DNA of 59,745 nucleotides, counting the filler. It is 5 parts of 5 records of this genome, joined end to end, with 100 filler letters (N's around TTAATTAATTAA, not from the genome) between each part and the next. Parts side by side here need not be neighbours in the genome. Positions count along the whole stretch, not along the records: positions 46,612 to 59,745 come from SRR31156797_3631; 4 more parts are not named here. The stretch is one strand, 5' to 3'. Below the pieces are notes generated by a model that did no database searches, was not told where the DNA came from, and saw nothing but the letters and a program-made list of their open reading frames with translations. Positions 40,998 through 59,745 of this stretch are shown here, one piece after another; position 1 is the first letter of the stretch, and each line of letters begins with the position of its first letter. The position numbers were made by a program, and so were the translations under genes.

Positions 40998-41006
40998 TAT
41001 TCCCCC

Positions 41007-45731: not shown

Positions 45732-45880
45732 TTCATCCTCCGTTTCCCTTTTAGTATTTTATAAAAAAATTCCCTACCCAACGTTTTAAACTATACATTT
45801 CAATAGACATATCTTATCACATTAGAAAACTATTTTCTAGTTAATTGTATTATAATAATAAAATTATATAGAATTCGACA

Positions 45881-45942
45881 TTTAAAACTAAATAGATCCA
45901 GTAACAATTTCATAATTGTTACCGGATCTATTTAGTTTTAAA
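45881..45942 (-). terminator. Long hairpin/terminator downstream of the HEPN gene
   Basis: 29-bp inverted repeat with one mismatch that is a G-U pair on the - strand transcript. Confidence 0.7.
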
Positions 45943-46511
45943 TTTTACTCTTAAAATACTCTATCTTCTCTTTGCAAATCTTCTCAGTTAGTTCTCTCAA
46001 CACTTGTACTCTTTCAGCTAAATACTCAAGTTCCTCTTTGTTAACTTTGAAGTTTTTATGATATCGTGAGCCTATATAAGCAGATTTCAAGAGATTAAAA
46101 AGTCTCTCTTCCTCAGCTGTGGTCATTGGAAATACTTCTCGAAACCTTTTATCTTCATCACATGCCATCTTAGCTAATTTTTCTATATTATGAATTTTCG
46201 GTTTATAATCAGTGAATACTAGCATAATCGTGAAATAAAAACGCTCTGTGGCTTGATGTAATTCAAAAATGGCGTTTTTTAAGAATTTAATATTTCGTTC
46301 AGCTTCAATTAAATTTAACTCATATACTCTAAAAAATCTCTCTGCATCTTCAAAACTTTCCTCAAAATACTCCTCTGATTTTTCAGCTCTTAATTCATAA
46401 GAGATACTCTGCGGAGCTTTAAGCTCATATTTTTTCCTGTTACTTAAAATATAACCTTCATTATAAACATCGCAGAAGAAGTATCTTCTCTCCTCCAGCA
46501 TCTTCACAATA
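45938..46511 (-). CDS. HEPN-domain protein, probably the C-terminal part of a nucleotidyltransferase-HEPN fusion (5' truncated)
   Basis: 'AIFELHQATER', 'KPKIHNI', 'LLKSAYIGSRY'. Confidence 0.8.
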
Positions 46512-46611: not shown

Positions 46612-46641
46612 TGAACCCTTGACCCCTACCGTGTCAGGGTA
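46612..46641 (-). other. tRNA-Val(GAC) 3' fragment, interpreted as the attachment site of the element
   Basis: Reverse complement TACC-CTGACAC-GGTA-GGGGTC-AAGGGTTCA gives anticodon arm (GAC), variable loop and start of the T arm; tRNA similarity stops 5' of the anticodon stem. Confidence 0.75.
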
Positions 46642-46769
46642 TCAAAAAACCGCATTTTATGCCCATAAATGAGGCTTTTTCTTACTATGAATACAATATG
46701 TTACATTGCTATATGACTCAGAAGTAAAAGGCGGGAAATAGGCAGAAACAGGGGGATATTTGAGACATT

Positions 46770-46790
46770 TAGTGACCATGGTAGTGACCA
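46770..46790 (+). repeat. Putative integrase arm-type binding sites
   Basis: Direct repeat TAGTGACCA at 46770 and 46782, about 130 bp inside the att core. Confidence 0.55.
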
Positions 46791-46987
46791 AATTGGCATG
46801 ATCAGAGGAACGCCAAAGAACCCAAAAGAATGAAAAGGAAAATAAAACATAGTGAGGTATTGACATGCAAATAATGATGCTTAATTTATCAGAGTAATAT
46901 ATAAAATTTTATTTTGTGAACCGGACCGGCACAGTTCTCTTCTGGGTGTATAGGGGCCGCTGGCGTTCATACCAAACCAAACCAGGG

Positions 46988-47019
46988 ATAGGTATGCATG
47001 CTTTGCGGCCTATTTTTTT
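46988..47019 (+). terminator. Leader terminator upstream of alpA/xis
   Basis: ATAGGT-a-TGCA/TGCG-GCCTAT hairpin followed by a T-run. Confidence 0.55.
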
Positions 47020-47041
47020 GGGAAAATTCAGGAGAAAACAT

Positions 47042-47230
47042 ATGGAAGAAAGAATTGAAAAACGCTGGTTAAATGTTGTTGAAACAGCTCAGTACATAGG
47101 CATTAGTCCACGTACTATCTATAACAGTACAGGTCCGAAAAGCAAAAAACCGTTTATTATTAAACCTAAACGTATAGGAAAACGTTTACTGTTTGATGTA
47201 AGAAAATTGGAGGCGTTCATGGAGCAGTAA
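47042..47230 (+). CDS. AlpA/excisionase-like HTH DNA-binding protein
   Basis: 62 aa 'WLNVVETAQYIGISPRTIYN...PKRIGKRLLFD..KLEAFM'; SD AGGAGA. Confidence 0.85.
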   Translation: MEERIEKRWLNVVETAQYIGISPRTIYNSTGPKSKKPFIIKPKRIGKRLLFDVRKLEAFMEQ

Positions 47231-47474
47231 TTTTTGCATCAATACACAAGAGAACAAAACAATTTAGGTGTTACCATAATAAATTAAATAATATTATTAT
47301 CCTCATATACGCTTATACTGCGGTTATACAGGGAGACCATGCACTAAACAAATAAATTAATGAAATTAATTGCAATAAAAATAATAAATTGGGTTGACAA
47401 ATACATTTTGATGATTACGTTATTATATGTAGTCAAAATATTTTTAACATTTACTTTATTATGAGGTACAGAAA

Positions 47475-47750
47475 ATGACAGAAAAAACACAAAATCAGGA
47501 AAAAATCAAACTTCAGGCTTTGGTTGATGCAACTCTTTATAATAGGTGTAAAATGATTGCCGCGCAGAAGGGGTGGACGATACCAGATCTAATAGAGGAT
47601 ATGATGGAAAATTATGTGGAGGCAGAAGAAGAAAAATGGTTGGATAAAATTTTTGCTGAACGGCTGGAGCAGGCACATGCAGGGGGTAAATTGGATGAAA
47701 TGCCAAATGTTAAACGGTATTATGAAGAATTATCAAAAAATAAAAATTAA
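47475..47750 (+). CDS. Ribbon-helix-helix-like regulator
   Basis: 'KIKLQALVDATLYNRCKMIAAQKGWTIPDLIEDMMENYV' fits an RHH pattern; SD GAGGT; TTGACA at 47394. Confidence 0.65.
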   Translation: MTEKTQNQEKIKLQALVDATLYNRCKMIAAQKGWTIPDLIEDMMENYVEAEEEKWLDKIFAERLEQAHAGGKLDEMPNVKRYYEELSKNKN

Positions 47751-47852
47751 ACACATTTAAAACTATTTAGAATTAAAATTTTATACATTCTCAATGCTGG
47801 CGGGAGTTTAACGGTTGGATAGCCGGTCCTAACGGATTTACACCTCTGAGAG

Positions 47853-47905
47853 AAGCCATGTGAGAGATCAAACGTAAATTTTTGATTTTTCGCATGGCTT
47901 TTTTT
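47853..47905 (+). terminator. Intrinsic terminator in the primase leader
   Basis: 20-bp stem whose three DNA mismatches are all G-U pairs on the + strand, followed by a T-run. Confidence 0.75.
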
Positions 47906-47932
47906 ATGCCTCATGACCGAGGAGTAGAGAAA

Positions 47933-48037
47933 ATGGAAACAGGATGGCCATATCAAAATTTACAGTTTGCCGAGGTGCCCTGTGGGGGGGTCAAGGGTAG
48001 CTGCCCACCAGCTACCTCAGCCTCGGCATTATCCTAG
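47933..48037 (+). CDS. Putative 34-aa leader peptide
   Basis: METGWPYQNLQFAEVPCGGVKGSCPPATSASALS*; SD GAGGAG at 47919; stop 3 nt before the primase SD. Confidence 0.35.
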   Translation: METGWPYQNLQFAEVPCGGVKGSCPPATSASALS

Positions 48038-48055
48038 AGTGGGAGGAAATTGAAA

Positions 48056-49891
48056 ATGAATAATGAACTAACAGATTTTACAACAGATAGGATCAGTGGA
48101 TGGCTAAAACTATGTCCACAGTGGATAAACTGGAAGCCGGTACAACGGGAAAACGGGAAAATCGATAAAATCCCCGTTGATCCGGTAACACTAGAACCGG
48201 CTAAAACGAATGATCGATCGACATGGACAAAATTTTTACCAGCCGTTGAATCCGCCAGAACTAATCAGCTCGGTATTGGTTTTGTTTTTACAGGTCGAGA
48301 CCCATTTGTTGGAATTGATTTAGATGATTGTTTCGAGAATGGGCAACCAAAATCATGGGCAAAAAATTTGGTTGATGGATTTGACAGCTATGCAGAGATT
48401 ACGCCATCCGGAAAAGGGCTGCATATCATTACACGTGCAAAGCTTCCGGGGAAACGGAGACGGAAGGGTAAAATTGAAACGTATGAATCAGGCCGATTTT
48501 TTACTGTGACCGGAAATAGTCTGATTCGGTATATGCGTGACGGTCAGGATGAAATGAATAATTTTTATCGTGATCATTTCGGGGAAGAACCAAAAACGGA
48601 AACAAAAAAACCTGTTGAATCACCTACACACACAGAGGATGAAATACTAAATGGTCTAAAAAACTATGCACCATTTCAGCGATTATTTGCCGGTGATATA
48701 GCAGGATATCCGAGTCAGAGTGAGGCGGATTTAGCGTTATGTAATATGATCGCTAAACGGACACATAACCCACAGGAGATAGATAGTATTTTCCGGGAAT
48801 CGGGGTTGTACAGGGAAAAATGGGATCAGATGCGGGGATCAGAAACATATGGTCAGATAACTATTGATAAATGTTTGGCCGATGCACCACAACTAACAGA
48901 AATACAAATTACAGAATCCAAAATCATCATTAAAACTATTGGGGAATTAATGACAACTAAATTCCCACCGGTGATTGATGTGATTAGCGGTGGAATTTTA
49001 CCGGAGGCAGGCGGTTTAATTTTAGCAGGTGAATCAGAGGCTGGAAAATCAATGCTATCAATGGAAATAGCTTTGAAATTAGCATTGGGCAGACAACTGT
49101 TTGACGGAAATTTACTAGTACCGAAAAAACGTAAAATTTTAGTTTTGCAGTGTGAAAATCCAGAGCCACAGGTGCAACAACGATTATATAGAATGATTAA
49201 CGGAATGAATATTTGTGTCGATGAATTAGAGGATAGAATAATTTTTGCAGACCCACAGACTAGATATGATTTGATGGGGGCGGGATGTATTGCAAACGTT
49301 ATTGATACAGTAAAACAGTGTGAGGCGGATGTTATGATTATAGATCCGCTATCGTCTTTTCATGTGATAGACGAGAATGATAATGGTCGGATGAGGACGG
49401 TATTGGATAACATCACGGCTATATCACGGCAAACGGGTTGTGCTGCAATCGTAATTCATCACTATGGAAAACCGACTGAAAAACGTGCGGATCAATACAG
49501 ATTACGTGGTGCCTCTAGTATCAAGGACTGGGCGGATAGCATCATTTCCGTGACTAGGAGAAAACATGAACACAAACAAATGTTCATGTTGCGATTTGAT
49601 AAGATTCGTCATGGGGTAAAACCGAAACCAATTTTATGTGAACGGGATGAAAATTTTTTATCGGTAGTGACGGAGGTGGAAATGCTGATCACACCAAAAC
49701 AAATACAAGATTTTTTAAAGAAGAATTTTCCTAGTGGAGCGGATACCAAAACTAAATTGTTAAACGCACTAAAAGGGGAATTTGATGTTAGTGATTCTAC
49801 AGCACATAGAGCTATCAATGAAGCGGTGGATATGAAATTTATTAGGGAATTAAAGGGCAAAGGAAAATCAAAAAAATATGTTTCTATGTAG
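48056..49891 (+). CDS. NrS-1-type primase-polymerase fused to AAA_25/RepA-like helicase
   Basis: 'GIGFVF...VGIDLDDC', 'YAEITPSGKGLHII', 'SQSEADLALC', 'FRESGLYREKWD'; Walker A 'GESEAGKS', Walker B 'MIIDP', 'IHHYGK', 'RGASS'. Confidence 0.88.
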   Translation: MNNELTDFTTDRISGWLKLCPQWINWKPVQRENGKIDKIPVDPVTLEPAKTNDRSTWTKFLPAVESARTNQLGIGFVFTGRDPFVGIDLDDCFENGQPKSWAKNLVDGFDSYAEITPSGKGLHIITRAKLPGKRRRKGKIETYESGRFFTVTGNSLIRYMRDGQDEMNNFYRDHFGEEPKTETKKPVESPTHTEDEILNGLKNYAPFQRLFAGDIAGYPSQSEADLALCNMIAKRTHNPQEIDSIFRESGLYREKWDQMRGSETYGQITIDKCLADAPQLTEIQITESKIIIKTIGELMTTKFPPVIDVISGGILPEAGGLILAGESEAGKSMLSMEIALKLALGRQLFDGNLLVPKKRKILVLQCENPEPQVQQRLYRMINGMNICVDELEDRIIFADPQTRYDLMGAGCIANVIDTVKQCEADVMIIDPLSSFHVIDENDNGRMRTVLDNITAISRQTGCAAIVIHHYGKPTEKRADQYRLRGASSIKDWADSIISVTRRKHEHKQMFMLRFDKIRHGVKPKPILCERDENFLSVVTEVEMLITPKQIQDFLKKNFPSGADTKTKLLNALKGEFDVSDSTAHRAINEAVDMKFIRELKGKGKSKKYVSM

Positions 49892-50085
49892 TCATGTGTT
49901 GAAACATGTGCGACTAGTCAAGGCGACGTGACTACATAATTTACTTAATGAATTCATATACTTATCATAGATCATGGCCCGTGACTATTCAAGGCGACAT
50001 GACCACATATAACACATTGAAAATACTACATAATTCTATGTGTTCATTGTTTCTCTATATATATGTTTTTGGTGAACACATAGAA
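49886..50085. repeat. Candidate replication origin (direct plus inverted repeats)
   Basis: 26-bp direct repeat (49912-49937 vs 49983-50008, 23/26 identical); inverted 12-mer (49886-49897 vs 49926-49937); perfect 13-bp inverted repeat (50034-50046 vs 50073-50085). Confidence 0.55.
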
Positions 50086-50199
50086 ACAGAAGAGAATATT
50101 TTTTTCATTTTCTGTGGTCTAAATATGAGAATTATAACCGGGAATATTTTTTCATTTTTTAGATGTCAGTAAAAATTTTTTGAACTATTAGATGGGGAT

Positions 50200-50415
50200 T
50201 TGGGTATGGAACATTGGAGTGATAATTTTAGTTTACATGAAGCAATGAAAATTGGAACTATCGCAGGTTATGAACCGGATGAGGATATATGGGACAAACG
50301 AGATTATATTATTGATCTAGCCTGCCATATCATAGGAATGGATCGATGCAGCCTAGGAACTGGATATGATGAGGTGAATAATTTTTTAGTGTGTGCTCGT
50401 GGTGCCGCTGGATGA
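50200..50415 (+). CDS. Hypothetical protein
   Basis: 71-aa ORF co-oriented with the element; no recognisable motif. Confidence 0.45.
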   Translation: MGMEHWSDNFSLHEAMKIGTIAGYEPDEDIWDKRDYIIDLACHIIGMDRCSLGTGYDEVNNFLVCARGAAG

Positions 50416-50446
50416 TAGCTACATTATAGCTACATTATAGCTACAT
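50415..50446 (+). repeat. 11-bp tandem repeat ATAGCTACATT (about 3 copies)
   Basis: atagctacatt atagctacatt atagctacat. Confidence 0.85.
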
Positions 50447-50555
50447 CGGATGAAATCTGACTCCAAGCACGGCTTGTCTTAGGCCAAGTGTCTCAAAATG
50501 ATACACTTATTAGCAATAGTGTCGAAATATTCGGCAGTTTTCAGTGAGGTGAATT

Positions 50556-50915
50556 ATGACCAATGCAACTTATTTTAACCAAACAGAGAAAATCGACGGT
50601 AGGACGCGTCAGGCACGTGAGGTGAAGAGGTTGAAGGCAGCCCTTACCGAGCATCCCGTTAGTACCGCAAGGGCGATCCTGATGGATTCTGTGGCCCGTA
50701 ACACTTTGATTGAACAACAGATCTATGAGACTGCGATGGGTCAGGGTATGGTTAACGAAAAAGGAAAAATTAATCCATTGATCGAAAAAACCTTGTTGAA
50801 ATATCAAAACGCCTGTAGAACTGCCCTGACACAATTTCTAGCATTGGGAGGGAAACCCGGAAATGATCCAGATGAAAATATTTTTGACGATATATTCGAG
50901 AATGATGAAGATTAG
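50556..50915 (+). CDS. Putative terminase small subunit
   Basis: 119 aa, helical, 'INPLIEK.LLKYQN' segment and acidic tail; SD GAGGTG; lies upstream of terL. Function inferred from position. Confidence 0.5.
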   Translation: MTNATYFNQTEKIDGRTRQAREVKRLKAALTEHPVSTARAILMDSVARNTLIEQQIYETAMGQGMVNEKGKINPLIEKTLLKYQNACRTALTQFLALGGKPGNDPDENIFDDIFENDED

Positions 50916-51380
50916 GTTAGATTAGGTTAAATATGCGGAATCAGATTATGAACACAATAAAACCTATTAATACCCACTGTGACATGGTAGGGGTCAATAT
51001 ATTACCATTAGCTAGACATGATAACGATTATGTCACTGCGAAACCATATAAGTTATAGATATCATTGAAAGGTCTCATAAGCTTGATTATGTAAACTCGC
51101 TATGTTTCTGTGGGTTTAAGCGTGAAAGAATAGCATCATAATACGTCTAAACTAATATATTGTGTGTCATTATTTTATGCCATTTATAGTTGTAACAAAC
51201 ATGTTATATAGTGTTAAATATCGAAGCAGTGGAAAACGGTAAAAGAATAGGTTTGATTATGTTTAATCATGTTCAAGGGCATTTTGAGGTTATGGGGGAG
51301 CCCGACCTGCGAAAACATTTTTTGAAATTTTTTTTTGTAGTACCCCACGCGTAAAATGTAAAAAATAAAAAATTAATAAA

Positions 51381-51536
51381 ATGGAAATACAAAAACCAAA
51401 ATACATGATTAAACATATAGAAATTATTGAAAAATTAGAAAATGAAAAATATTTTATTGATGTGACTAGCAGAAAATATGAACATAAAGCCAGAATTTGT
51501 GGCTATATTGATAAAAAAATGAAAAATGGAGCATGA
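51381..51536 (+). CDS. Possible 51-aa hypothetical protein
   Basis: MEIQKPKYMIKHIEIIEKLENEKYFIDVTSRKYEHKARICGYIDKKMKNGA*; no clear SD. Confidence 0.25.
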   Translation: MEIQKPKYMIKHIEIIEKLENEKYFIDVTSRKYEHKARICGYIDKKMKNGA

Positions 51537-51617
51537 TTTTACATAGATATAGGGCAGATATAATATAGATATACCCGATATAGTACCCATATATACCCGC
51601 AATACCTACCACATACA

Positions 51618-51660
51618 GAGAGCCGAGAGCCCCCATGTGACAGCAGCATTATGGAGGCTC
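51618..51660 (+). promoter_or_regulatory. Com box plus SD-sequestering hairpin upstream of terL
   Basis: GAGAGCC-GA-GAGCCCC (51618-51633); GAGCCCCCAT (51627-51636) pairs with ATGGAGGCTC (51651-51660), which contains the SD. Confidence 0.75.
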
Positions 51661-51664
51661 AACA

Positions 51665-53479
51665 ATGGCAACCGCACAAGTAAAAAAATCTAATACAAAA
51701 TCAAAATTACAATCTTGGCAGGAAAATAATCCACAAGCATTTTTACAGTGGATAGAGGATATTCAACCCAGAATACTAGTCAATTCTCGTTATGAAATTT
51801 TTTCCCCTACCGAAAAACAATTAAAACTTATCAATGAAATTTTAAAACCTTCCGAAAATCAAATTAATATTCCCGATGATGAACCAGTAAAACCTATCGG
51901 AACCAGATCACATAACGCCAGAAAACCCAGACCATCACGAAAATCAAAAATTATTGGCGATGATAATATACAAAGCCGAAAATCATCATTTGCACACTCA
52001 CTCTCATTATTGATCCAACCTCGAAGACATGGCAAAAGTTCAATTCTCTGTTTAATCTGTCTGTGGTTATTTACCAGCCGCAAAAATTTAACCATTCAAT
52101 TGCTAGGAAACACTGAATCACATTGTCAGAGAGTTCAATTTTCAACCGTCAAAAAAATCATAGCAAATACCCCAAAACTGAGAAAATTGATTAATGAAAA
52201 AGATGAATATGTTTTTGAAATTTTCTTTCCGGCATGGGGGAACGTAATTCAGCGCAGCCCCGGGAACAACCCCAGCACTAGTTTCGGCCAGAAAATAGAC
52301 GTTTTATGGGTTAGTGATTTACACGCCTGTCAGGATCTGAGTCCGTTCAATGCATTGCAGGGCAGTTTAATAGACTCCAAAGACAGCCTACTTTTAATAG
52401 ACAGCAATGTAGACGCTAAAAACGGCCATGTTCATTTGATCCAGCAAGAGGCGGAAAACGATCCATCAATTTTTTGCAATCATACATTCTATCCTGACAT
52501 CGATAGTTACTGTGAAAATGCTCCCCCATGGATTAGTAGGACCAAAGCAAAAAGATTACAAAAAACATCATTAGAGGCAGATTTTAGGCGGGATATTTTA
52601 GGTTTAAGATCCGATGCTAAAAACGCATTATTTCCTGCCGATGTTATCGAATCATGTAAATCCCCGTATAAATGTCCGGTTGAATCCATCGAATCATTAA
52701 CACAGGGCAGGAGCTATCGGGTTGGAGGGGGTTTAGATCGATCAAAATCCCTGCTAGGCTCGGCAATGGGGAAAGACAATACAATATGGACGGTAGTATT
52801 AAAAATTGCTGGTGTAGAAGATATGGAACCGGAATTTTATGTTTTGAATCAGGTGAACGTGGTTCCAAATACGGCATCAAATATTAAAAAAATTATATTG
52901 AAGGATCACAAACGGTATAAACTCGATAATGCGGTTTTAGAAAATTATGAGACAATGGATTTGATCCCATGGTTGGAAAATCAAAAAATTCCATGTGAAT
53001 TAGTATCGCCACATAGCACGGTTCAAAATAGCGCATTCCCTGAATTAGGCCGAATCGTTAGGGAAGGGCGTTTGAAATTTCCCGCAGATAATAAACGTTT
53101 GATTTCTGAGATGGGAACGTTTTCTTATACCGCAGCTAGACGTGGGGAAGGGTATAGCTTCGGACATAGTAGTAAATCACAACATGATGATACTGTTTTT
53201 TCATTGTTGTGGAGTGTTTGGGCTTTACGTAGTCAAATCATGAATTTATACACGCTGTCAAATATAATGTGCAATTCTAAACGACCAAACAGGCATATGT
53301 GCTACCTAATGGGTGGTAACATGGAATTATTTTGCTCCGAACAATGTCATGCGGCACAGGAGGTCAGGGATATGCACAAGCAATTTTTGCAGTATCAGAT
53401 GGACTCCGATGTAACATTGAGCCAGTTTTATATAAATTATGTTAAACTAAGCGGAGCCAAAATTTATCAGGCGATATAA
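51665..53479 (+). CDS. terL: Terminase large subunit
   Basis: Walker A 'QPRRHGKS'; RNase H-like nuclease motifs 'GGGLDRS' and 'HDDTVFSL'; upstream of the portal. Confidence 0.85.
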   Translation: MATAQVKKSNTKSKLQSWQENNPQAFLQWIEDIQPRILVNSRYEIFSPTEKQLKLINEILKPSENQINIPDDEPVKPIGTRSHNARKPRPSRKSKIIGDDNIQSRKSSFAHSLSLLIQPRRHGKSSILCLICLWLFTSRKNLTIQLLGNTESHCQRVQFSTVKKIIANTPKLRKLINEKDEYVFEIFFPAWGNVIQRSPGNNPSTSFGQKIDVLWVSDLHACQDLSPFNALQGSLIDSKDSLLLIDSNVDAKNGHVHLIQQEAENDPSIFCNHTFYPDIDSYCENAPPWISRTKAKRLQKTSLEADFRRDILGLRSDAKNALFPADVIESCKSPYKCPVESIESLTQGRSYRVGGGLDRSKSLLGSAMGKDNTIWTVVLKIAGVEDMEPEFYVLNQVNVVPNTASNIKKIILKDHKRYKLDNAVLENYETMDLIPWLENQKIPCELVSPHSTVQNSAFPELGRIVREGRLKFPADNKRLISEMGTFSYTAARRGEGYSFGHSSKSQHDDTVFSLLWSVWALRSQIMNLYTLSNIMCNSKRPNRHMCYLMGGNMELFCSEQCHAAQEVRDMHKQFLQYQMDSDVTLSQFYINYVKLSGAKIYQAI

Positions 53480-53586
53480 ATTATTTAAAAATGTTCTAAT
53501 GTATAAATAAATGATATTAAAACGTTGTAAATGCCATAAAAATTTAGTAATTAGGATCTTAAAAGTAAAATAATAAAAAATAATGC

Positions 53587-53616
53587 TTGACAAGGTTATT
53601 TCAGTTATGGTATGGT
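53587..53616 (+). promoter_or_regulatory. Sigma70-like promoter for the com-portal operon
   Basis: TTGACA (53587) N18 TATGGT (53611) with TGn extension. Confidence 0.55.
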
Positions 53617-53652
53617 GATATGCAACGGGGGAATAATTAATTAGGATGAAAC

Positions 53653-53820
53653 ATGGTTTATAAACTTGAATATCGTTGTTATGCCTGTGGTAGGCTACTA
53701 GGCATAGGTCTGTTGGCTGGTGGCTGGCTGGACGTTAAATGCCGGAGGTGTAACCGTTTGAACCATATTTATGAAGGTAGTTGTAGCATAGCAACAGTTA
53801 GTAATATCAATATAATTTAA
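53653..53820 (+). CDS. com: Mu Com-family zinc-finger regulator (55 aa; absent from the ORF track)
   Basis: MVYKLEYRCYACGRLLGIGLLAGGWLDVKCRRCNRLNHIYEGSCSIATVSNINII*, matching 'RCxxCxRLL...KCxRCxxxN'; SD AGGA. Confidence 0.85.
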   Translation: MVYKLEYRCYACGRLLGIGLLAGGWLDVKCRRCNRLNHIYEGSCSIATVSNINII

Positions 53821-53843
53821 ATATTTAGTAGTAACAATTTTCA

Positions 53844-53899
53844 GAGCCCTTCTAGAGGCCATTTATTACGTTATCAATACGTGATTTTTGGCCTTTTTT
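53844..53899 (+). terminator. Com-box-overlapping terminator/attenuator upstream of the portal
   Basis: GAGCCC-TTCTA-GAGGCC (53844-53860) overlaps the 5' arm of hairpin AGGCCA..ATTACGT/ACGTGAT..TGGCCT, followed by a T-run. Confidence 0.65.
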
Positions 53900-53920
53900 A
53901 TTGCCCCGAGGAAAAATCTA

Positions 53921-55258
53921 ATGCTTTGGAATAGTACAGCAAAAACAGTAGTGCAAGAGATGTTTAGAGATGCACAGGAGAAAGCGGCACAGGAACGGAA
54001 AAACGATACAATAAAACGTTTGAGTTATTATCATGATGAACAGGAATCTTACATAGTAGAACTATTGGAAAAACATCATGCAGACCCAGACAAATTTGAA
54101 CCGGTTTTTTTCAATGTGGTGAAAAAAATAATAAATCAATTATCAATGGTGTATTTAGCCGATGCACAGAGGATAGTTGATGGTACGGATCAGGATAAAC
54201 AAATCTATGCAGATATAATTGATTCATCCAGCCTAAATCCAAAAATGAAAACCGCCAGTCGATATACAAAATTATTGAAAACTATTTTGCTGAGACCTGT
54301 ATGGCGAAAAGGTAAAATGGATTTAGATCTACTATCAGGTGATGTTTTGAATGTGATATGTGGAGATACACCTGAAATATTGGAGCAGGTTATGGTTACA
54401 CACTATCCACAATCAGGTGAGAGTAAAGATATAGAATATAGTTTGTGGTCTGACGAAACTTATCATAGATTAGATTACAATGGCAATATACTACAGTCAG
54501 AAGCAAATCCATATCATACTATACCATTTGTACCATTGTGGGATTCATACCCTGCCACGGGTTCATTTTGGGCTTCTGGTGGCAATGATCTAATCTCTAT
54601 CCAGTCCACAATAAACCAGAAATTGACGGATCTGATGCTTGTGATTGAGTATCAGGGATTTGGTGTTCCTGTTGCTAAAGGTTTGAAAGATGGTGGTAAA
54701 TTAACGGTAGGACCAAATTCAGCAGTGGAAATTGAAGATCCAAACGGAAGTTTTACATATGAGAAAACAAATGCCCCAATACAAGCAATTTTAAATTCAA
54801 TAGATTTTCTCATCAAAAATGCGGCTGTTACTAATGGTCTACCTGCATCTAGTTTATCCGTAAAGCCTACACAGGAGTCAGGACTAGCTAGGATATCCGG
54901 AAACCGGGAATTAGAGGAATTACGCCGTGATCAAATCGGACTATTTTCCACTTATGAGAAAAGATTATTTTCCATGTTTCGTACAGTTTGGAATGTTCAT
55001 AATCCATCTAAAAAAATCTCTGAAAACGCAAGACTAAAATTAGATTTTTTCGATCCTAAGCCTGTCATGAGTCCAGATAAACAGACTGAGCAGTGGGAAC
55101 GGGAACTAGAAATGGGAACAATATCAAGAGTGGAAATCTTGATGCTTAAGAACCCGGATTTATCCAAGGAGGACGCACAAAAAAAACTAGAAGAAATACA
55201 AAACGAAAACAAAAATTTTAACCTTTCGCCAGACCAAGGCGTAAAAATGGAGGAATAA
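53921..55258 (+). CDS. Phage portal protein (SPP1 gp6-like)
   Basis: 'YYHDEQ', 'FNVVKKIINQ', 'NPYHTIPFVP', 'LISIQ..IN', 'QESGLA'; SD GAGGA before ATG 53921; position in the head module. Confidence 0.82.
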   Translation: MLWNSTAKTVVQEMFRDAQEKAAQERKNDTIKRLSYYHDEQESYIVELLEKHHADPDKFEPVFFNVVKKIINQLSMVYLADAQRIVDGTDQDKQIYADIIDSSSLNPKMKTASRYTKLLKTILLRPVWRKGKMDLDLLSGDVLNVICGDTPEILEQVMVTHYPQSGESKDIEYSLWSDETYHRLDYNGNILQSEANPYHTIPFVPLWDSYPATGSFWASGGNDLISIQSTINQKLTDLMLVIEYQGFGVPVAKGLKDGGKLTVGPNSAVEIEDPNGSFTYEKTNAPIQAILNSIDFLIKNAAVTNGLPASSLSVKPTQESGLARISGNRELEELRRDQIGLFSTYEKRLFSMFRTVWNVHNPSKKISENARLKLDFFDPKPVMSPDKQTEQWERELEMGTISRVEILMLKNPDLSKEDAQKKLEEIQNENKNFNLSPDQGVKMEE

Positions 55259-55260
55259 AA

Positions 55261-55647
55261 ATGATAGACGAAAAATCCGTCAAAAAAGACGAAAAAATTG
55301 AAAACGAAAAAAACCAGACTATGCAGGAACACGTCACCGAAATGGCGGAAAACATGATTCCCAAAAGTCGATTTGATCAAGTCAACCAACAGAAAAAAGA
55401 CGCATTAGCTGTATTAAATTCTGTTGCCGATGAGCTGGCAAATGATGTGCCGAAAGATATGCAGGACCTAATTCCGGACCTAGCGCCAGCGGAAAAAATA
55501 ATTTGGATCAGACAGGCTATCAAAAAAGGGATCTTCAATGAAAATTTGGAAAACGGTCTGGACAGTAAACGACCAACCGGAAAAGTACCGATTGATCTAA
55601 CAGGTATGAGCCCCATGGATATGATGCGCCATGGGTATAAACAGTAA
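55261..55647 (+). CDS. Capsid scaffolding protein
   Basis: 'MIPKSRFDQVN' motif, charged and helical, between portal and MCP. Confidence 0.7.
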   Translation: MIDEKSVKKDEKIENEKNQTMQEHVTEMAENMIPKSRFDQVNQQKKDALAVLNSVADELANDVPKDMQDLIPDLAPAEKIIWIRQAIKKGIFNENLENGLDSKRPTGKVPIDLTGMSPMDMMRHGYKQ

Positions 55648-55680
55648 AAATTAAAAAATATTAAAAATTAGACCGTTTGT

Positions 55681-55719
55681 GAGTGCCTCTGAGCGCCAGA
55701 TATTCGGCACATGGAGGTA
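55681..55719 (+). promoter_or_regulatory. Com box plus SD-sequestering hairpin upstream of the major capsid gene
   Basis: GAGTGCC-TCT-GAGCGCC (55681-55697); TGCCTCTGAGCGCC pairs with GGCACATGGAGGTA (12/14 including G-U), burying SD GGAGGT. Confidence 0.78.
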
Positions 55720-55725
55720 GTACAA

Positions 55726-56664
55726 ATGGCAATTAGTTTAATTGAACAAGCGAAATTAAAAACAGATCCTTTACAGCGGGGGATTATCATGTGTTTTCCG
55801 GAATCTAGTCCGGTTTTGGAGGACATTCCGTTCATGAATGTATCTAGTGACACGTATAAATTCAATAGGGCGGATACATTACCACGTTCAGATTTTAGGG
55901 CTATCAACGAATCGTACACTGAGGGAACTAGCGGCATAGACCATGTAACGGAATCTTTGACTATTAGTGGCGGTTTCTCTGATGTGGATAGAGTGTTAGT
56001 GAAAACCCAGGGCAACATAAACGATTTAAGGGCGGTACATGACGCATTAAAAGCGAAATCCTGCGCTTTGAAATGGCAAAAAACATATTTCAAAGGCGAT
56101 GTCGAATCCAGTCCAAAAGAATTTGATGGGCTGCAATCCCGTTTAATCGGTGACCAGTTGATAGATGCCGGATCTGCTAGTGGTGGTGACGCTCTATCCC
56201 TAGCAAAACTGGACGAAACGATTGACGCTGTGGACGGTAGCCCAGATGCACTATACACAAACAAAACTATGCGTAGACTGTTGACTGTAGCCGCTAGAAC
56301 TACAACTGTTGGTGGAAATATCGCCTACACTCTGGATCAGTTTGGCCGCAGAGTTACCACCTACAATGATGTTCCCATTCGCATTATTGAAGAAGATGAA
56401 AATGGTGATCAGGTCCTTGGATTCGATGAGGCTGCACCCGGAGGCGGATCTAGTGTGTGTACCAGTATGTATGCCGTGAAATTCGGTTTAGGAACTCACT
56501 GTTGGGGTCTGCAATGTGGCGAGATGGATGTGATTGATATGGGGTTATACAGTGGTGGGACCAAATATCGTACACTGATTGAATGGATTTCAGGGTTCAC
56601 CATCGGGCATAACAAATCTGCAGCACGTTTGCGCGGTATCAAAAACGCTGATGTAGTGGCGTAA
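55726..56664 (+). CDS. Major capsid protein (HK97 fold inferred)
   Basis: 312 aa; 'SPVLEDIPF', 'FRAINE', 'GGFSDVDR', 'FKGD...PKEFDGL..R', 'AARLRGI'; follows the scaffold. Confidence 0.85.
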   Translation: MAISLIEQAKLKTDPLQRGIIMCFPESSPVLEDIPFMNVSSDTYKFNRADTLPRSDFRAINESYTEGTSGIDHVTESLTISGGFSDVDRVLVKTQGNINDLRAVHDALKAKSCALKWQKTYFKGDVESSPKEFDGLQSRLIGDQLIDAGSASGGDALSLAKLDETIDAVDGSPDALYTNKTMRRLLTVAARTTTVGGNIAYTLDQFGRRVTTYNDVPIRIIEEDENGDQVLGFDEAAPGGGSSVCTSMYAVKFGLGTHCWGLQCGEMDVIDMGLYSGGTKYRTLIEWISGFTIGHNKSAARLRGIKNADVVA

Positions 56665-56847
56665 AATTTAGGTTTCACGGGCCACCTGATCTGATCTGGC
56701 AATATATTTTTTTTCGATGTGGTTTTTCGACGGCATTATTCCCACAGAAGAAAAAAACATATTGTGGCCTATTTCGCAGAAAGATCCGATCCGCATTTAG
56801 AGGAGTGCGTTAAAAATCTTTATGATTTTCCTTAGATGTTAGGGCTA

Positions 56848-56897
56848 GGGACATGGGCGGGTTCTCCTCCCGCACCAACCATGTCCCAACATTTTTT
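56848..56897 (+). terminator. Hairpin/terminator after the capsid gene
   Basis: GGGACATGG-GCGGG/CCCGC-accaa-CCATGTCCC followed by a T-run. Confidence 0.55.
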
Positions 56898-56914
56898 AAC
56901 GGGGTTCCATATTT

Positions 56915-57301
56915 ATGGCACGGATATTTCACGGAGTTCCATATCCCAACAAAATTAAGAAAAAACGGAAAAAATTAAAAAAATACAATGAACGGGACCG
57001 GATGCCATATAGAGAAAGACGATGTGGTAACTATATGATATGTTTGGAAAATGCTGCTCGATTTGATCTAGTTTTAGACTGTACAGACTGCCCGAATTTG
57101 TGTATACCGTCGCCACAACCGGATGATGGCTATACAGCAATGATTCTGGAGGACGCAACATGCTGTTCAAGACTACTAAAAGCGATTTTCTACCCGCAGG
57201 CATGGAAACTGGAGGAACGTGAACGGCAACAGGAAAAAAACAAAGAAAATATTAAAAAATTAGAGGATGTATCTATTTCTGAAATCGAGTGGTATGGTTA
57301 A
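56915..57301 (+). CDS. Hypothetical Cys-rich basic protein
   Basis: 128 aa; Lys/Arg-rich N-terminus; C-x5-C and CxxC motifs. Confidence 0.6.
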   Translation: MARIFHGVPYPNKIKKKRKKLKKYNERDRMPYRERRCGNYMICLENAARFDLVLDCTDCPNLCIPSPQPDDGYTAMILEDATCCSRLLKAIFYPQAWKLEERERQQEKNKENIKKLEDVSISEIEWYG

Positions 57302-57315
57302 TTTTACAATGCAAA

Positions 57316-58005
57316 CTATTTATCTAGTAAATCATTCTTAAATTCATTTAGATTCATTTCAATTTTCTGTTCAAATTTATCATCTCTTTCATTATTATTA
57401 TATTTAACGAGGTCAGGCTGATTTTTTCTCCCCATTTTAGTCTCCCATTCTATATTGATTATGTTATCGTCTTTATGTATAGCAAAAAATCTAATATATG
57501 CTTTAGGTTTATTTAATCTAATATTGGTTCCTTCCCTATAAGCATCAAGACATATTTCAAGTTCCTTTTCCTTAAGAATAATTTTCCATTCACTAGGGGT
57601 TAATCCGAACTTAAAATCTTTACATTTTGGCAAAACATCGTTTTTTAAAATATCTTCTATTGTTTCTTCTTTAGGCTCTTTTTCCTCCATCATAATCTTT
57701 CTCCTTTCTAAAGCATTACCCATTTTTGATTGACGTCTAACGTCAGTGTTGATTAATATTTTATCAACAACAATCTGTTTTTTTGCCTGTGGGTTCGTTT
57801 TAAAATTCACAATCAAGCCATGCTTTGATGCAATTTCTTGGATCTCATCAAGACCACTCAATACAACTTGATCAGACTTTGATATTCCAAGTTTTGTGGC
57901 GATAGAGAGGAATTGTTCGTATAGCCTGTCAAAGTCTTTGTTGTCTTCATTGCATTCTGCACATGAGATACACATGTTTGTTGGATATAGTTCAAATTGT
58001 AGCAT
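57316..58005 (-). CDS. Hypothetical accessory (cargo) protein
   Basis: 229 aa, strong SD GGAGGAGG; the only convincing antisense gene in the element. Confidence 0.7.
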   Translation of the reverse strand: MLQFELYPTNMCISCAECNEDNKDFDRLYEQFLSIATKLGISKSDQVVLSGLDEIQEIASKHGLIVNFKTNPQAKKQIVVDKILINTDVRRQSKMGNALERRKIMMEEKEPKEETIEDILKNDVLPKCKDFKFGLTPSEWKIILKEKELEICLDAYREGTNIRLNKPKAYIRFFAIHKDDNIINIEWETKMGRKNQPDLVKYNNNERDDKFEQKIEMNLNEFKNDLLDK

Positions 58006-58530
58006 TTTTTGACCTCCTCCGTTAAAGGTTAATGTTTAAAATACTCCTGCTTTTCCCGACGAATCATGTCTCATCTCAAGCGCCGTGTTCTGATGATTTT
58101 CCTTATATCAGCGCATAAATGAAATTGCAAGAAAAAAATCGAAATCCGGCAAAATTTCTTGAAATAGACCATAAAATAACACCCTAAGCTATAAAATGCT
58201 AGTATATGGCTTGTAACAAACTATAATCGGAGATTATCAACTATGTAATTTTTTACTAATCACTCTATTCTAATTGTTGTATCGATACTAGAAAACACAA
58301 TTATGGTTTACTAAGAATTGGATTTACAAGAAACTTATATTAACCCTATGCCAGACACACGAGCCTAGTCGTCTAGTAGTCCTATACCATACCCATTCAT
58401 TAAAATTTTTCGTTGATCCTGACCATTCCTCATAAGTCGTGTGGACACTCAAACACATAATATAAACTCAATTTAGCAGAACAAGCAGATTAGAAGCAGA
58501 AGGGCCGCATTAAAAATATATAAATAATGC

Positions 58531-58559
58531 TCGACAACAATAAAGCCAATGCTTATATT
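58531..58559 (+). promoter_or_regulatory. Putative promoter for the RHH-integrase operon
   Basis: TCGACA-N17-TATATT. Confidence 0.45.
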
Positions 58560-58594
58560 GTTAGAAATATTAAAGCAGAACGGAGGCAGAGAAG

Positions 58595-58783
58595 ATGCAA
58601 AAAAACATAGTTTTTAGAGTTGATGAAAATTTACGGGCAAATTTCAAGGTGGCTGCGGCCATGGAGAGAAAAACCATGGCGGAAATTATGACAGCATTTG
58701 TCGTCAAATTTGTTGAGGAAACGTTTGATAGAGAGGAGGCAGACCATGGGAGTGACGGTCAGAGAAAATCTAGGAAAAGATAA
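58595..58783 (+). CDS. ParG/CopG-like ribbon-helix-helix protein
   Basis: 'KNIVFRVDENLRANFKVAAAMERKTMAEIM..FV'; SD GGAGG. Confidence 0.75.
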   Translation: MQKNIVFRVDENLRANFKVAAAMERKTMAEIMTAFVVKFVEETFDREEADHGSDGQRKSRKR

Positions 58784-58804
58784 AAAATAAAAAGGAGAAA
58801 TATT

Positions 58805-59722
58805 ATGGGGATTTTAGCTGAATGCCCGTTGTGTCACCAAAAGCAGGCAACTAAAAATAAAAAATGTAAATGTGGATATGATCTGGCAAAGGGCAAGCGA
58901 TCCAAGAAAGTTAAATTTTGGGTATCGTATTATTTGCCCGATGAAAATGGAAAACGAAAACAAAAACGTGAACCAGTTAAAGGCTTAGACGTTGACTCCT
59001 ATTCCATAGAGGATGCCAAATTGTTTGAAGCAAAGAAAAAAATTTTAAAGAAAGAGAAAAAGATATTTGATGTCAAAGAAGTGTCCACAACAACTTTTTC
59101 TGAGCTGGCAGAATGGTATTTGTCATTGGAAAAAGTTAAGGGACTTGCATCCTATTGGGTAATAGAATTATCACTTAAAAAATTTAACGCCGTTTTTGGT
59201 CACTATCAGGTAGTGACCATTAAAGCTGCCGACTTGGAAAATTATCAAGAAAAGAGAAAAAAAGCTGGAAAAGCTCCAGCAACGATAGATCATGAAATTG
59301 GAAAAAGTCGAACCATGATCCGAAAAGCTTTTGATAATGGCCTTGTGGATGGTGAAGTTTTGCGGACATTCAACAAAGTGAAAAACACATTGAAACCTGG
59401 ATCAGATGTTAGAGACCGAATATTATCAAAGGCTGAATTTAATAAGCTTATGGAACATGCAGCGCCGTATATAAGACCGGTAATAGCCATGGGATATTAT
59501 ACGGGCATGAGACGTGGGGAAATTCTGGGCTTAACCTTGGATAGACTAGATCTAAAAAAACGAATGATCTATTTGGAAAAGGAAGATACCAAAGATAATG
59601 AACCTAGAAACATTCCCATTTGTAATAAGCTGTATAAAATTTTAATTGAGGACGTTGACACTATCCGTAAAGCGGAAGAGGACAATACAGTTTTCCTGTA
59701 TAGAAAAAGACCTATCGAATAA
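58805..59722 (+). CDS. int: Tyrosine integrase with N-terminal zinc ribbon; C-terminal catalytic part missing
   Basis: 'CPLC...CKCG'; core-binding region 'APATIDHE'; catalytic 'YYTGMRRGEIL.L' and 'TKD..PR.IP'; stops before the HxxR and Tyr motifs. Confidence 0.85.
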   Translation: MGILAECPLCHQKQATKNKKCKCGYDLAKGKRSKKVKFWVSYYLPDENGKRKQKREPVKGLDVDSYSIEDAKLFEAKKKILKKEKKIFDVKEVSTTTFSELAEWYLSLEKVKGLASYWVIELSLKKFNAVFGHYQVVTIKAADLENYQEKRKKAGKAPATIDHEIGKSRTMIRKAFDNGLVDGEVLRTFNKVKNTLKPGSDVRDRILSKAEFNKLMEHAAPYIRPVIAMGYYTGMRRGEILGLTLDRLDLKKRMIYLEKEDTKDNEPRNIPICNKLYKILIEDVDTIRKAEEDNTVFLYRKRPIE

Positions 59723-59745
59723 GGTTAGAGTTTGAGAGCGGAGCG

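Follow-up and report, generated by a model that had tools for sequence, protein, structure and literature searches.

Gene content of the element

The DNA analysed here, a stretch of 59,745 nt that we call the window, consists of five contigs joined by N44-TTAATTAATTAA-N44 linkers, and the fifth of these (46612–59745) carries the element that is the subject of this work, a compact unit encoding an integrase, a replicase, a terminase and the head proteins of a phage. The element is one entire assembly contig of 13,134 nt at a depth of 32.8x. It is reasonably probable that this contig holds a single integrated copy from a lineage not described before, made up of capsid-forming, tail-less mobile elements of about 13–17 kb in uncultured Desulfobacterota-type bacteria. 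Its close relatives, identified by L numbers, fall into three layouts for which this analysis uses labels of its own: subtype a (the layout of this element), subtype b and a sister lineage. Scans of 16 open reading frames (ORFs) of the window against Pfam and PHROGs confirm the gene content given in the preliminary description of this DNA, namely xis/alpA, a ribbon-helix-helix (RHH) protein, a primase-helicase, a large terminase (TerL), Com, a portal, a scaffold, a major capsid protein (MCP) and an integrase, with weak matches for the RHH protein and the scaffold and a match below the Pfam threshold for the helix-turn-helix (HTH) regulator.

The MCP (55711–56664, plus strand) is of the HK97-fold, epsilon15 gp7/BPP-1 type (phrog_212, 2.2e-70; PF20911, 4e-18), and its profile matches the capsid proteins of BPP-1 and epsilon15 in the Protein Data Bank (PDB; 3j4u and 3j40). 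Upstream on the same strand lie a probable scaffolding protein (55261–55647; weak matches to phrog_194 and PF06810), placed between portal and MCP and conserved in 16 loci, and an SPP1 gp6-like portal (53888–55258; PF05133, 4.5e-11, model positions 14–414 of 416) that is 60–74% identical in subtype a and b relatives. Between TerL and portal, these relatives also conserve a Com-like zinc ribbon (53653–53820, plus strand; PF10122 at 25 bits, above the cut-off of 22.9; phrog_6417, 5.3e-5), a possible translational regulator. TerL itself (51665–53479, plus strand; phrog_9, 4.2e-8) shares with its relatives the invariant motifs PRRHGKS, GGGLDR and HDD, representing the Walker A and nuclease sites. 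Searches of the PDB with the TerL and portal sequences returned nothing useful; the top Foldseek matches of an AlphaFold2 (AF2) model of TerL (pLDDT 54) are all large terminases, including that of HK97 (6z6d, 4.2e-11). The C-terminal extension of TerL (53265–53479, residues ~535–604) bears four Cys residues (C536/C546/C557/C561) that are invariant in all seven aligned relatives, along with a weak match to TRASH/MYM zinc fingers, and a Cys4 zinc-finger tail of this kind is unusual for a large terminase.

A conserved 119-aa protein (50556–50915, plus strand) occupies the position expected of the small terminase (TerS) and is kept in all six elements of subtypes a and b in which this region is covered. 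It finds no support in Pfam, PHROGs or the PDB, leaving its identification as TerS, as tentatively made in the preliminary description, with position and conservation as its basis. The AT-rich non-coding stretch with short repeats that separates it from TerL (50916–51664) may serve as a late promoter or packaging site. Beyond the MCP lies a conserved Cys-rich protein of about 130 residues (128 aa in this copy; 56915–57301, plus strand) with four Cys residues invariant in the alignment, which is a marker of subtype a. As noted previously, the element lacks any recognizable tail, tape-measure, connector, protease or lysis gene: among the 16 scanned ORFs, no match to tail, tape-measure, adaptor, connector/stopper, protease, HNH or lysis families was returned by Pfam or PHROGs.

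Genes for integration, regulation and replication lie on either side of this module. An excisionase/AlpA-like HTH regulator (46916–47230, plus strand) matches phrog_66 (3.8e-6) and HTH_17 (1.9e-5; 25.3 bits, under the Pfam cut-off of 27) and shares 44% identity with an ORF in L112; its true start is probably internal because the HTH occupies residues 51–104. The primase-helicase (48050–49891, plus strand) is comprised of an N-terminal prim-pol type primase, an NrS-1-like helix bundle and a C-terminal AAA_25 helicase (phrog_1829, 1.3e-74; PF22763, 1.6e-19; PF13481, 9.4e-32), and is 44–63% identical in subtype a and b relatives. Immediately 3′ of its gene, a 27-nt direct repeat (49912 and 49983) sits inside a 38-nt inverted repeat (49863–49900/50075–50112), and this region (49860–50115) is a candidate replication origin on the sole basis of its location after the primase gene; a 74-aa ORF within it is probably not a gene. 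The tyrosine integrase at the right end (58805–59722, plus strand; phrog_1, 6.1e-36) is truncated. It matches PF00589 over model positions 3–101 of 172, is cut after about residue 301 and aligns to residues 5–251 of the 372-aa integrase of L022. Its stop codon (59720–59722) falls within a high-copy repeat that cuts the gene, and thus the catalytic half with its His/Arg/Tyr region is gone. The integrases of relatives are full length (376–386 aa); a search of the viral_contigs collection gave no relative of the integrase.

Relatives and their layouts

Searched with the MCP, viral_contigs gave 20 loci, genome_contigs 63 and metagenome_contigs 26; after duplicates had been removed, close relatives (MCP identity of at least 50%) were sorted into the three layouts. 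The core order of primase-helicase, small ORF, putative TerS, TerL, Com, portal, scaffold and MCP recurs in eight other non-redundant records (L086, L128, L005, L021, L024, L087, L127 and L112/L004). Six of these belong to subtype a, namely L086 (which contains L001), L128 (which contains L002 and L003), L005, L021, L024 and L087/L088, in which the MCP is followed by the Cys-rich ORF of about 130 aa, variable cargo, an RHH gene and int. The closest relative is L086 (MCP 82%, TerL 71% and portal 73% identical), and L128 is a record of 16,785 nt rated 100% complete by CheckV. The L021 element resides in a complete 8.16-Mb chromosome of a Desulfatiglandales metagenome-assembled genome (MAG), where it spans about 14.4 kb between two flanking ORFs, one of which is read as gdh from its first residues, and its edges carry an imperfect direct repeat matching at 17 of 19 positions, for which we estimate a chance of about 1 in 100. 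The ORFs beyond int in L021, L024, L086 and L087 are unrelated to any gene family of the element and are read as host genes from their first residues. All named hosts are MAGs, assigned to Desulfatiglandales, Desulfarculus, Desulfomonilia or “Deltaproteobacteria”.

Two features of subtype a relatives differ from the copy in the window. Between the HTH and primase genes, L021 (502–1692), L086 (358–1545) and L128 (12297–13505) encode a DNA methyltransferase of ~400 aa (PF01555; PHROG methyltransferase plus ParB-like) that the window copy does not have. The variable region of L086 (11679–14288) holds three ORFs, two of which begin alike, with signal- or lipobox-like N-termini followed by GGGGDDGGGG linkers, and none has a Pfam or PADLOC match.

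Subtype b (L127 and L004/L112) has the same core as subtype a, and the two are 60% identical in the portal and 72% in the MCP. Its L127 member, a record of 14,565 nt, carries a direct terminal repeat (DTR) of 110 bp and is rated 100% complete. Here the MCP is followed by three small ORFs, a ConA-like protein (PF13385), a fibre-like protein of 276–383 aa, Ad1 (phrog_477, 3.4e-18), Hc1 (phrog_161, 5.6e-10) and a 107-aa protein with a signal peptide, before xis and the primase. Compared with this element, subtype b thus adds a post-MCP protein, the ConA-like and fibre-like proteins, Ad1 and Hc1; no tail tube or tape measure is found, and the complete record has no integrase. The first ~95–150 residues of the 276–383-aa protein (L112:2769–3920; L127:943–1773) are 48–71% identical to proteins of 329–463 aa from phage contigs of 29–39 kb (L114–L120). 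In one of these, L116, two large ORFs precede the corresponding gene and four small ones lie downstream of it; the last of the four, outside the scans, is read as a peptidase-like endolysin. The shared N-terminus suggests a fibre anchor domain, and the 29–39-kb contigs would then be candidate helper phages.

The sister lineage (MCP 57–61% identical) includes L012, L022 and L026 and runs in the order int, O-like replication initiator, TerS, TerL, portal, scaffold, MCP, gp7-like minor head protein, Ad1 and cargo. It differs from this element in having the O-like initiator instead of a primase-helicase and in adding the SPP1 gp7-like minor head protein and Ad1. L012, L022 and L026 are bounded by exact 48–50-bp repeats of the 3′ ends of tRNA-Ala, tRNA-Pro and tRNA-Lys, which lie 15,708, 15,724 and 15,077 bp apart. 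The cargo of the sister elements (L026:13118–16265; L027:14331–16654; L022:15180–15974) includes a DndB/DpdB-like protein beside a Dam-type methyltransferase, a pair of serine recombinases and a CoiA-like nuclease; among ten cargo ORFs submitted to PADLOC, the only matches are DpdB-like in L026 and a weak DruB in L022. Both subtype b and the sister lineage share with this element homologous TerL, portal, scaffold and MCP (42–72%), the same size class and the lack of tail genes.

A probable independent lineage of head-encoding elements

The MCP finds 305 records among cultured phages, all below 60% identity, and the best (45%) belong to genomes of 50–350 kb, while TerL has no match among 50,697 phage records. 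In 1.84 billion representative proteins, a TerL profile retrieves 333 sequences at E ≤ 1e-3 and 89 at E ≤ 1e-30. In trees of TerL and portal, a single clade (100/99 and 100/100) holds both subtypes and leaves out the sister lineage, with the branching order of a and b undecided. Strong purifying selection acts on MCP, portal and TerL: across this element and five relatives, nonsynonymous differences (pN) are 0.15–0.32, against saturated synonymous differences (pS) of 0.79–0.96.

The preliminary description held that its idea of a separate family, tail-less and capsid-forming, with a head of the scaffold type and its own terminase, would be undermined if homologous head modules lay mostly in tailed prophages or if tail genes lay past int, and the family survives on both counts. 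The core-sharing records and the sister lineage are small units of about 14.4–16.8 kb or short contigs, and no tail or lysis family is found in this element or in L004, L006 and L012. For 87 non-core ORFs from nine elements of subtypes a and b, the 25 listed PHROG families include no tail, lysis or HNH family; among them are Com, methyltransferases, ParB-like proteins, Xis, a single weak “virion structural protein” and, in subtype b only, two cases each of Ad1 and Hc1. Past int, the four subtype a loci named above hold only ORFs unrelated to the element. As for the conserved synteny, common size and attachment (att) sites sought for such a family, the core order recurs in the eight records, and flanking repeats are exact in the sister lineage and imperfect in L021.

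Comparison with known satellites

Capsid-forming satellites were first described in 2022–2023, in Proteobacteria, Firmicutes and Actinomycetota. Among them, the phage-inducible chromosomal islands that form capsids (cf-PICIs), whose prototype EcCIEDL933 measures 15.4 kb, make their own capsids and take only tails from phage, with an adaptor and a connector that are core markers and determine tail specificity (10.1101/2022.09.08.507074; PMC10085698). The element resembles them in its size (13–17 kb), int, putative AlpA-like HTH, primase-type replicase, own TerL, portal and HK97-fold MCP, and in having no tail or holin genes. Its expected logic is the same, with a small capsid made and filled by the element and tails provided by phage. 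It differs from cf-PICIs in having a scaffold instead of a prohead protease, an MCP of the epsilon15/BPP-1 type (a contrast with the HK97 gp5-type capsids of cf-PICIs drawn by family names only), no HNH and a TerL that matches no phage. Its gene order is TerS (putative)-TerL-portal-scaffold-MCP with no adaptor or connector, and its relatives occur in uncultured Desulfobacterota-type MAGs, whereas cf-PICIs are found in Proteobacteria or Firmicutes.

According to the published description of the SatelliteFinder model, a cf-PICI of Type C shows at least nine of 11 core components, and tails and holins are forbidden. Integrase (truncated here), primase-replicase, TerL, portal and MCP are present in the element, and tails and holins are absent. 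HNH, prohead protease (a scaffold-like ORF fills the interval between portal and MCP), head-tail adaptor and connector/stopper are lacking. A candidate regulator shows a sub-threshold HTH_17 match and a match to phrog_66, and a candidate small terminase is the conserved 119-aa ORF at the expected position. This gives at most seven of the 11 components, below the nine required, so that an element expected to work like a cf-PICI fails membership, and current marker-based satellite finders would therefore miss such elements.

Other known systems share different parts of the design. The element shows the backbone of P4 and P4-like satellites, that is, int, a putative AlpA-type regulator, a primase-helicase and apparent integration at tRNA 3′ ends. 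P4 has no capsid, portal or terminase of its own and remodels the capsid of its helper through Sid. A P4-like satellite carries Psu/Sid/Delta-type remodelling genes and no capsid genes; the element encodes an MCP, a portal and a TerL itself and does not qualify. Neither the tail module nor the lysis cassette of a complete tailed prophage is found in this element or in the scanned relatives. The Streptomyces satellites MulchRoom and MiniFlayer, as they are described, encode TerS, TerL, portal, scaffolding protein and MCP in a scaffold-type head, and MulchRoom has in addition a tyrosine integrase and an HTH protein (PMC10690885). Those descriptions set them apart from the element, with a head-to-tail adaptor, HNH, DTRs of ~1 kb and no obvious replicase in the Streptomyces satellites, and a primase-helicase with neither adaptor nor HNH in the element (PMC10690885). 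Scaffold-type heads in capsid-forming satellites and the release of tail-less particles have already been published for other lineages (PMC10690885; bioRxiv 10.1101/2025.02.11.637232). Among the literature matches listed, no satellite report is tied to Desulfobacterota, Thermodesulfobacteriota or Deltaproteobacteria, and no description of this family appears in the titles and abstracts searched, a search that did not extend to supplementary element lists, which may name relatives.

The element most likely belongs to a new lineage, derived independently, of satellite-like elements that form capsids and lack tails, in which subtype a is set apart by having no recognizable neck genes. It would add to the known capsid-forming satellites a lineage from uncultured anaerobic Desulfobacterota-type, sulfate-reducer-like bacteria, with a scaffold-type head, a terminase clade matching no sequenced phage and at least three layouts (neck-less; neck and fibre; minor head protein and adaptor). 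Viral databases list such elements as complete “viruses” (CheckV 100%), with consequences for the statistics of viromes.

Proposed life cycle and the neck question

From its gene content, a life cycle can be proposed for the element. Its tyrosine integrase would insert it at the 3′ end of tRNA-Val(GAC), and upon induction the Xis/AlpA-like HTH protein and the integrase would excise it, after which the primase-helicase would replicate it from the repeats just 3′ of its own gene. A single rightward operon, TerS (putative)-TerL-Com-portal-scaffold-MCP, would build a scaffold-dependent HK97-fold procapsid sized for the element, to be filled by the element’s own highly divergent terminase. Because no adaptor, stopper, tail or lysis gene is found, release and infectivity would have to come from a helper phage, supplying tail and lysis as for cf-PICIs and, in subtype a, also the neck.

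The absence of a recognizable head-tail connector, as described previously, holds for subtype a, including this element, which has no recognizable neck protein, but not for the group as a whole, since an Ad1 gene, in some cases together with Hc1, is present in both of the other layouts. In these two layouts, other proteins take the place held in subtype a by the Cys-rich ORF, for which a role as a hidden adaptor finds no support, its HHalign probability to Ad1, Hc1 and post-MCP profiles being at most 0.2%. Its AF2 model is helical and of low confidence (pLDDT 66), with no fold match in the PDB and look-alikes in the Atlas that are only “hypothetical”, and so the structural search for an adaptor at this ORF, proposed in the preliminary description, returned none. 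We tentatively propose, as a possibility short of even odds, that subtype a is the first capsid-forming satellite lineage without a neck of its own, taking adaptor, stopper and tail from a helper phage or from neck-encoding sibling satellites, with the Cys-rich protein and the zinc-finger tail of TerL as lineage-specific parts. On this proposal, a sibling satellite as donor would make subtype a the parasite of a parasite. The neck-less layout offers a natural test of the need for a satellite-encoded neck in tail piracy.

Several points weigh against the reading of the element as a member of a working, helper-dependent lineage. This copy has a disrupted integrase and is probably stuck and unable to excise on its own. 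Its TerS assignment is unsupported. Since the element is a whole contig, this copy is bounded on either side by an assembly break, and its right end is not seen. For subtype a, no helper, particle, excised circle or packaging terminus has been seen, and the adaptor and connector that set tail specificity in cf-PICIs are satellite-encoded (10.1101/2022.09.08.507074; PMC10085698), so that their absence here is without experimental precedent. Searches of two host genomes with subtype b Ad1, phrog_477 and PF05133 gave no match, yet they were uninformative, as PF05133 missed the element’s own portal and phrog_477 was silent in all control genomes. A single-member tail family could lie outside the 25 families listed for the non-core ORFs, and in the sister lineage the absence of tail families holds for the ORFs scanned.

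Among the alternatives, the one that survives best, unlikely as it is, makes the element a second-order parasite, in which neck-less subtype a takes neck parts from subtype b, which encodes Ad1, Hc1 and fibre-like proteins, and both take phage tails. The single TerL/portal clade of a and b, the identity of their portals and MCPs and the Ad1 and Hc1 genes of subtype b would all suit such an arrangement. It is set against the complete G001 chromosome, which carries a subtype a element and, in searches of doubtful sensitivity, only one MCP of the family and no match to subtype b Ad1, and the trees leave the branching order of the two subtypes undecided.

Slightly less probable again is full autonomy, with a capsid that exits and delivers DNA by an unrecognized route, or with a minimal neck or tail made by unassigned ORFs. 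Four proteins are conserved but carry no assigned function (the 71-aa ORF described below, the TerS-position protein, Com and the Cys-rich 128-aa ORF), and in a lineage with so divergent a TerL, other parts may be unrecognizable too. The conserved unassigned coding capacity nevertheless totals less than 400 aa, far under that of any known tail; the Cys-rich protein resembles neither Ad1, Hc1 nor any solved fold; and no lysis gene is found. To our knowledge, moreover, all known bacterial virions of the HK97 fold are tailed.

We give little credence to the proposal that the element is an inert deletion remnant of a tailed prophage that kept its head and replication genes and lost its tail and lysis genes. 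The truncated integrase of this copy fits such a history, as do the distant MCP relatives (at most 45% identical) in true tailed phages of 50–350 kb, and L015 (MCP 47%) has a downstream ORF of 1184 aa, outside the scans, that is tape-measure-like by length only. Against this stand the tail-less layout of six other non-redundant subtype a records, core ORFs that are full length with saturated pS and low pN, the DTR-complete 14.5-kb genome of a sibling, the exact att repeats ~15 kb apart in sister elements and a TerL family unmatched in phage records. Independent decay cannot repeat the same boundaries, and relatives that differ in integrase and integration site do not descend from one vertically inherited deletion. 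Together, boundaries that recur, differing sites of integration, a sibling with a complete circular genome and the strength of the constraint argue for excluding a decayed prophage. Least probable of all is a host-domesticated structure, such as a gene transfer agent (GTA) or a capsid compartment, for although GTAs include tail-less head gene clusters and the depth of the element equals that of the flanking tRNA path, the element encodes an integrase, an excisionase-like protein and a primase-helicase of its own, its location varies between genomes, the sister lineage shows att repeats and a DTR circle occurs, all of them marks of a mobile element.

Ends of the contig and minor features

The helper-dependent element favoured here would have entered its host chromosome at a tRNA gene, and the left end of the contig bears on this step. 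A manual reading identifies a 32-nt 3′ fragment of tRNA-Val(GAC) at 46612–46643 (minus strand), comprising the anticodon stem, the loop CTGACAC, the variable loop and the start of the T-arm, which is presumed to be the att core repeat; the bases 5′ of it do not form a D-arm, and it is a fragment and not a whole gene. Neither ARAGORN nor Rfam calls a tRNA or RNA family in the element contig, because the fragment is cut by the contig end. Position 46612 is the contig end and not a mapped junction. Depths were taken from the unitigs of a public run that contains an identical 13,134-nt contig, a run that is possibly the source of the DNA and not independent of it. There, two paths lead into the 30-mer at 46612–46641, that of the element (32.8x) and another whose upstream bases differ (38.4x), and one unitig of 72.5x leads out, depths that fit a duplicated att core, or tRNA 3′ end, and suggest about one integrated copy of the element per chromosome. 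For the integration at tRNA-Val(GAC) claimed previously, the depths support the duplicated 30-mer, and the tRNA itself is a manual reading at a contig break. No circular (attP) junction is seen in the contigs of this run, which as contigs cannot show its absence; a further run, X2, contains none of this DNA.

At the right end, a high-copy repeat begins (59711–59745), which ends the contig and is represented by unitigs of 155–603x, whereas the element has 32.8x; very short unitigs carry several variants of it that differ by one mismatch. No copy of it is present elsewhere in the window, and its 25-mer has no match in viral_contigs; it could be the end of an insertion sequence, a miniature inverted-repeat transposable element or another short repeat.

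Several smaller genes and sites complete the map. A possible Arc/RHH-type regulator (47475–47750, plus strand) has weak matches to phrog_582 (0.007) and ParD (0.052), and an RHH-type protein (58595–58783, plus strand; weak RHH_10, 0.022) directly upstream of int has homologues in the same place in L021, L086 and L087 (33–57% identical). The conserved 71-aa protein downstream of the candidate origin (50200–50415, plus strand) has no Pfam or PHROG match and is 37–54% identical to homologues in L086, L024 and L127. It is followed by an 11-bp tandem repeat, ATAGCTACATT, in 2.9 copies (50415–50446), which could be an iteron or a pac-associated site. The variable region holds a non-conserved cargo ORF of 229 aa (57316–58005, minus strand), a singleton in clustering and with no match in Pfam, PHROGs or PADLOC; relatives carry other cargo here.

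The five joined contigs have G+C contents of about 37, 55, 42, 26 and 37%, and the bin looks mixed, and therefore the neighbouring contigs are uninformative on the host of the element. The adjacent contig of 26% G+C (38133–46511) encodes a 1574-aa protein (41007–45731, minus strand) and a HEPN-domain protein (45938–46507, minus strand), both unrelated to the element. Within the element, the non-coding stretch after the TerS-position ORF contains, at 50980–50997, an inverted 18-nt near-copy (17 of 18 positions) of the tRNA/att core, TGACATGGTAGGGGTCAA, with a chance expectation that we estimate at ~0.1, which could be an integrase-binding site or a relic.

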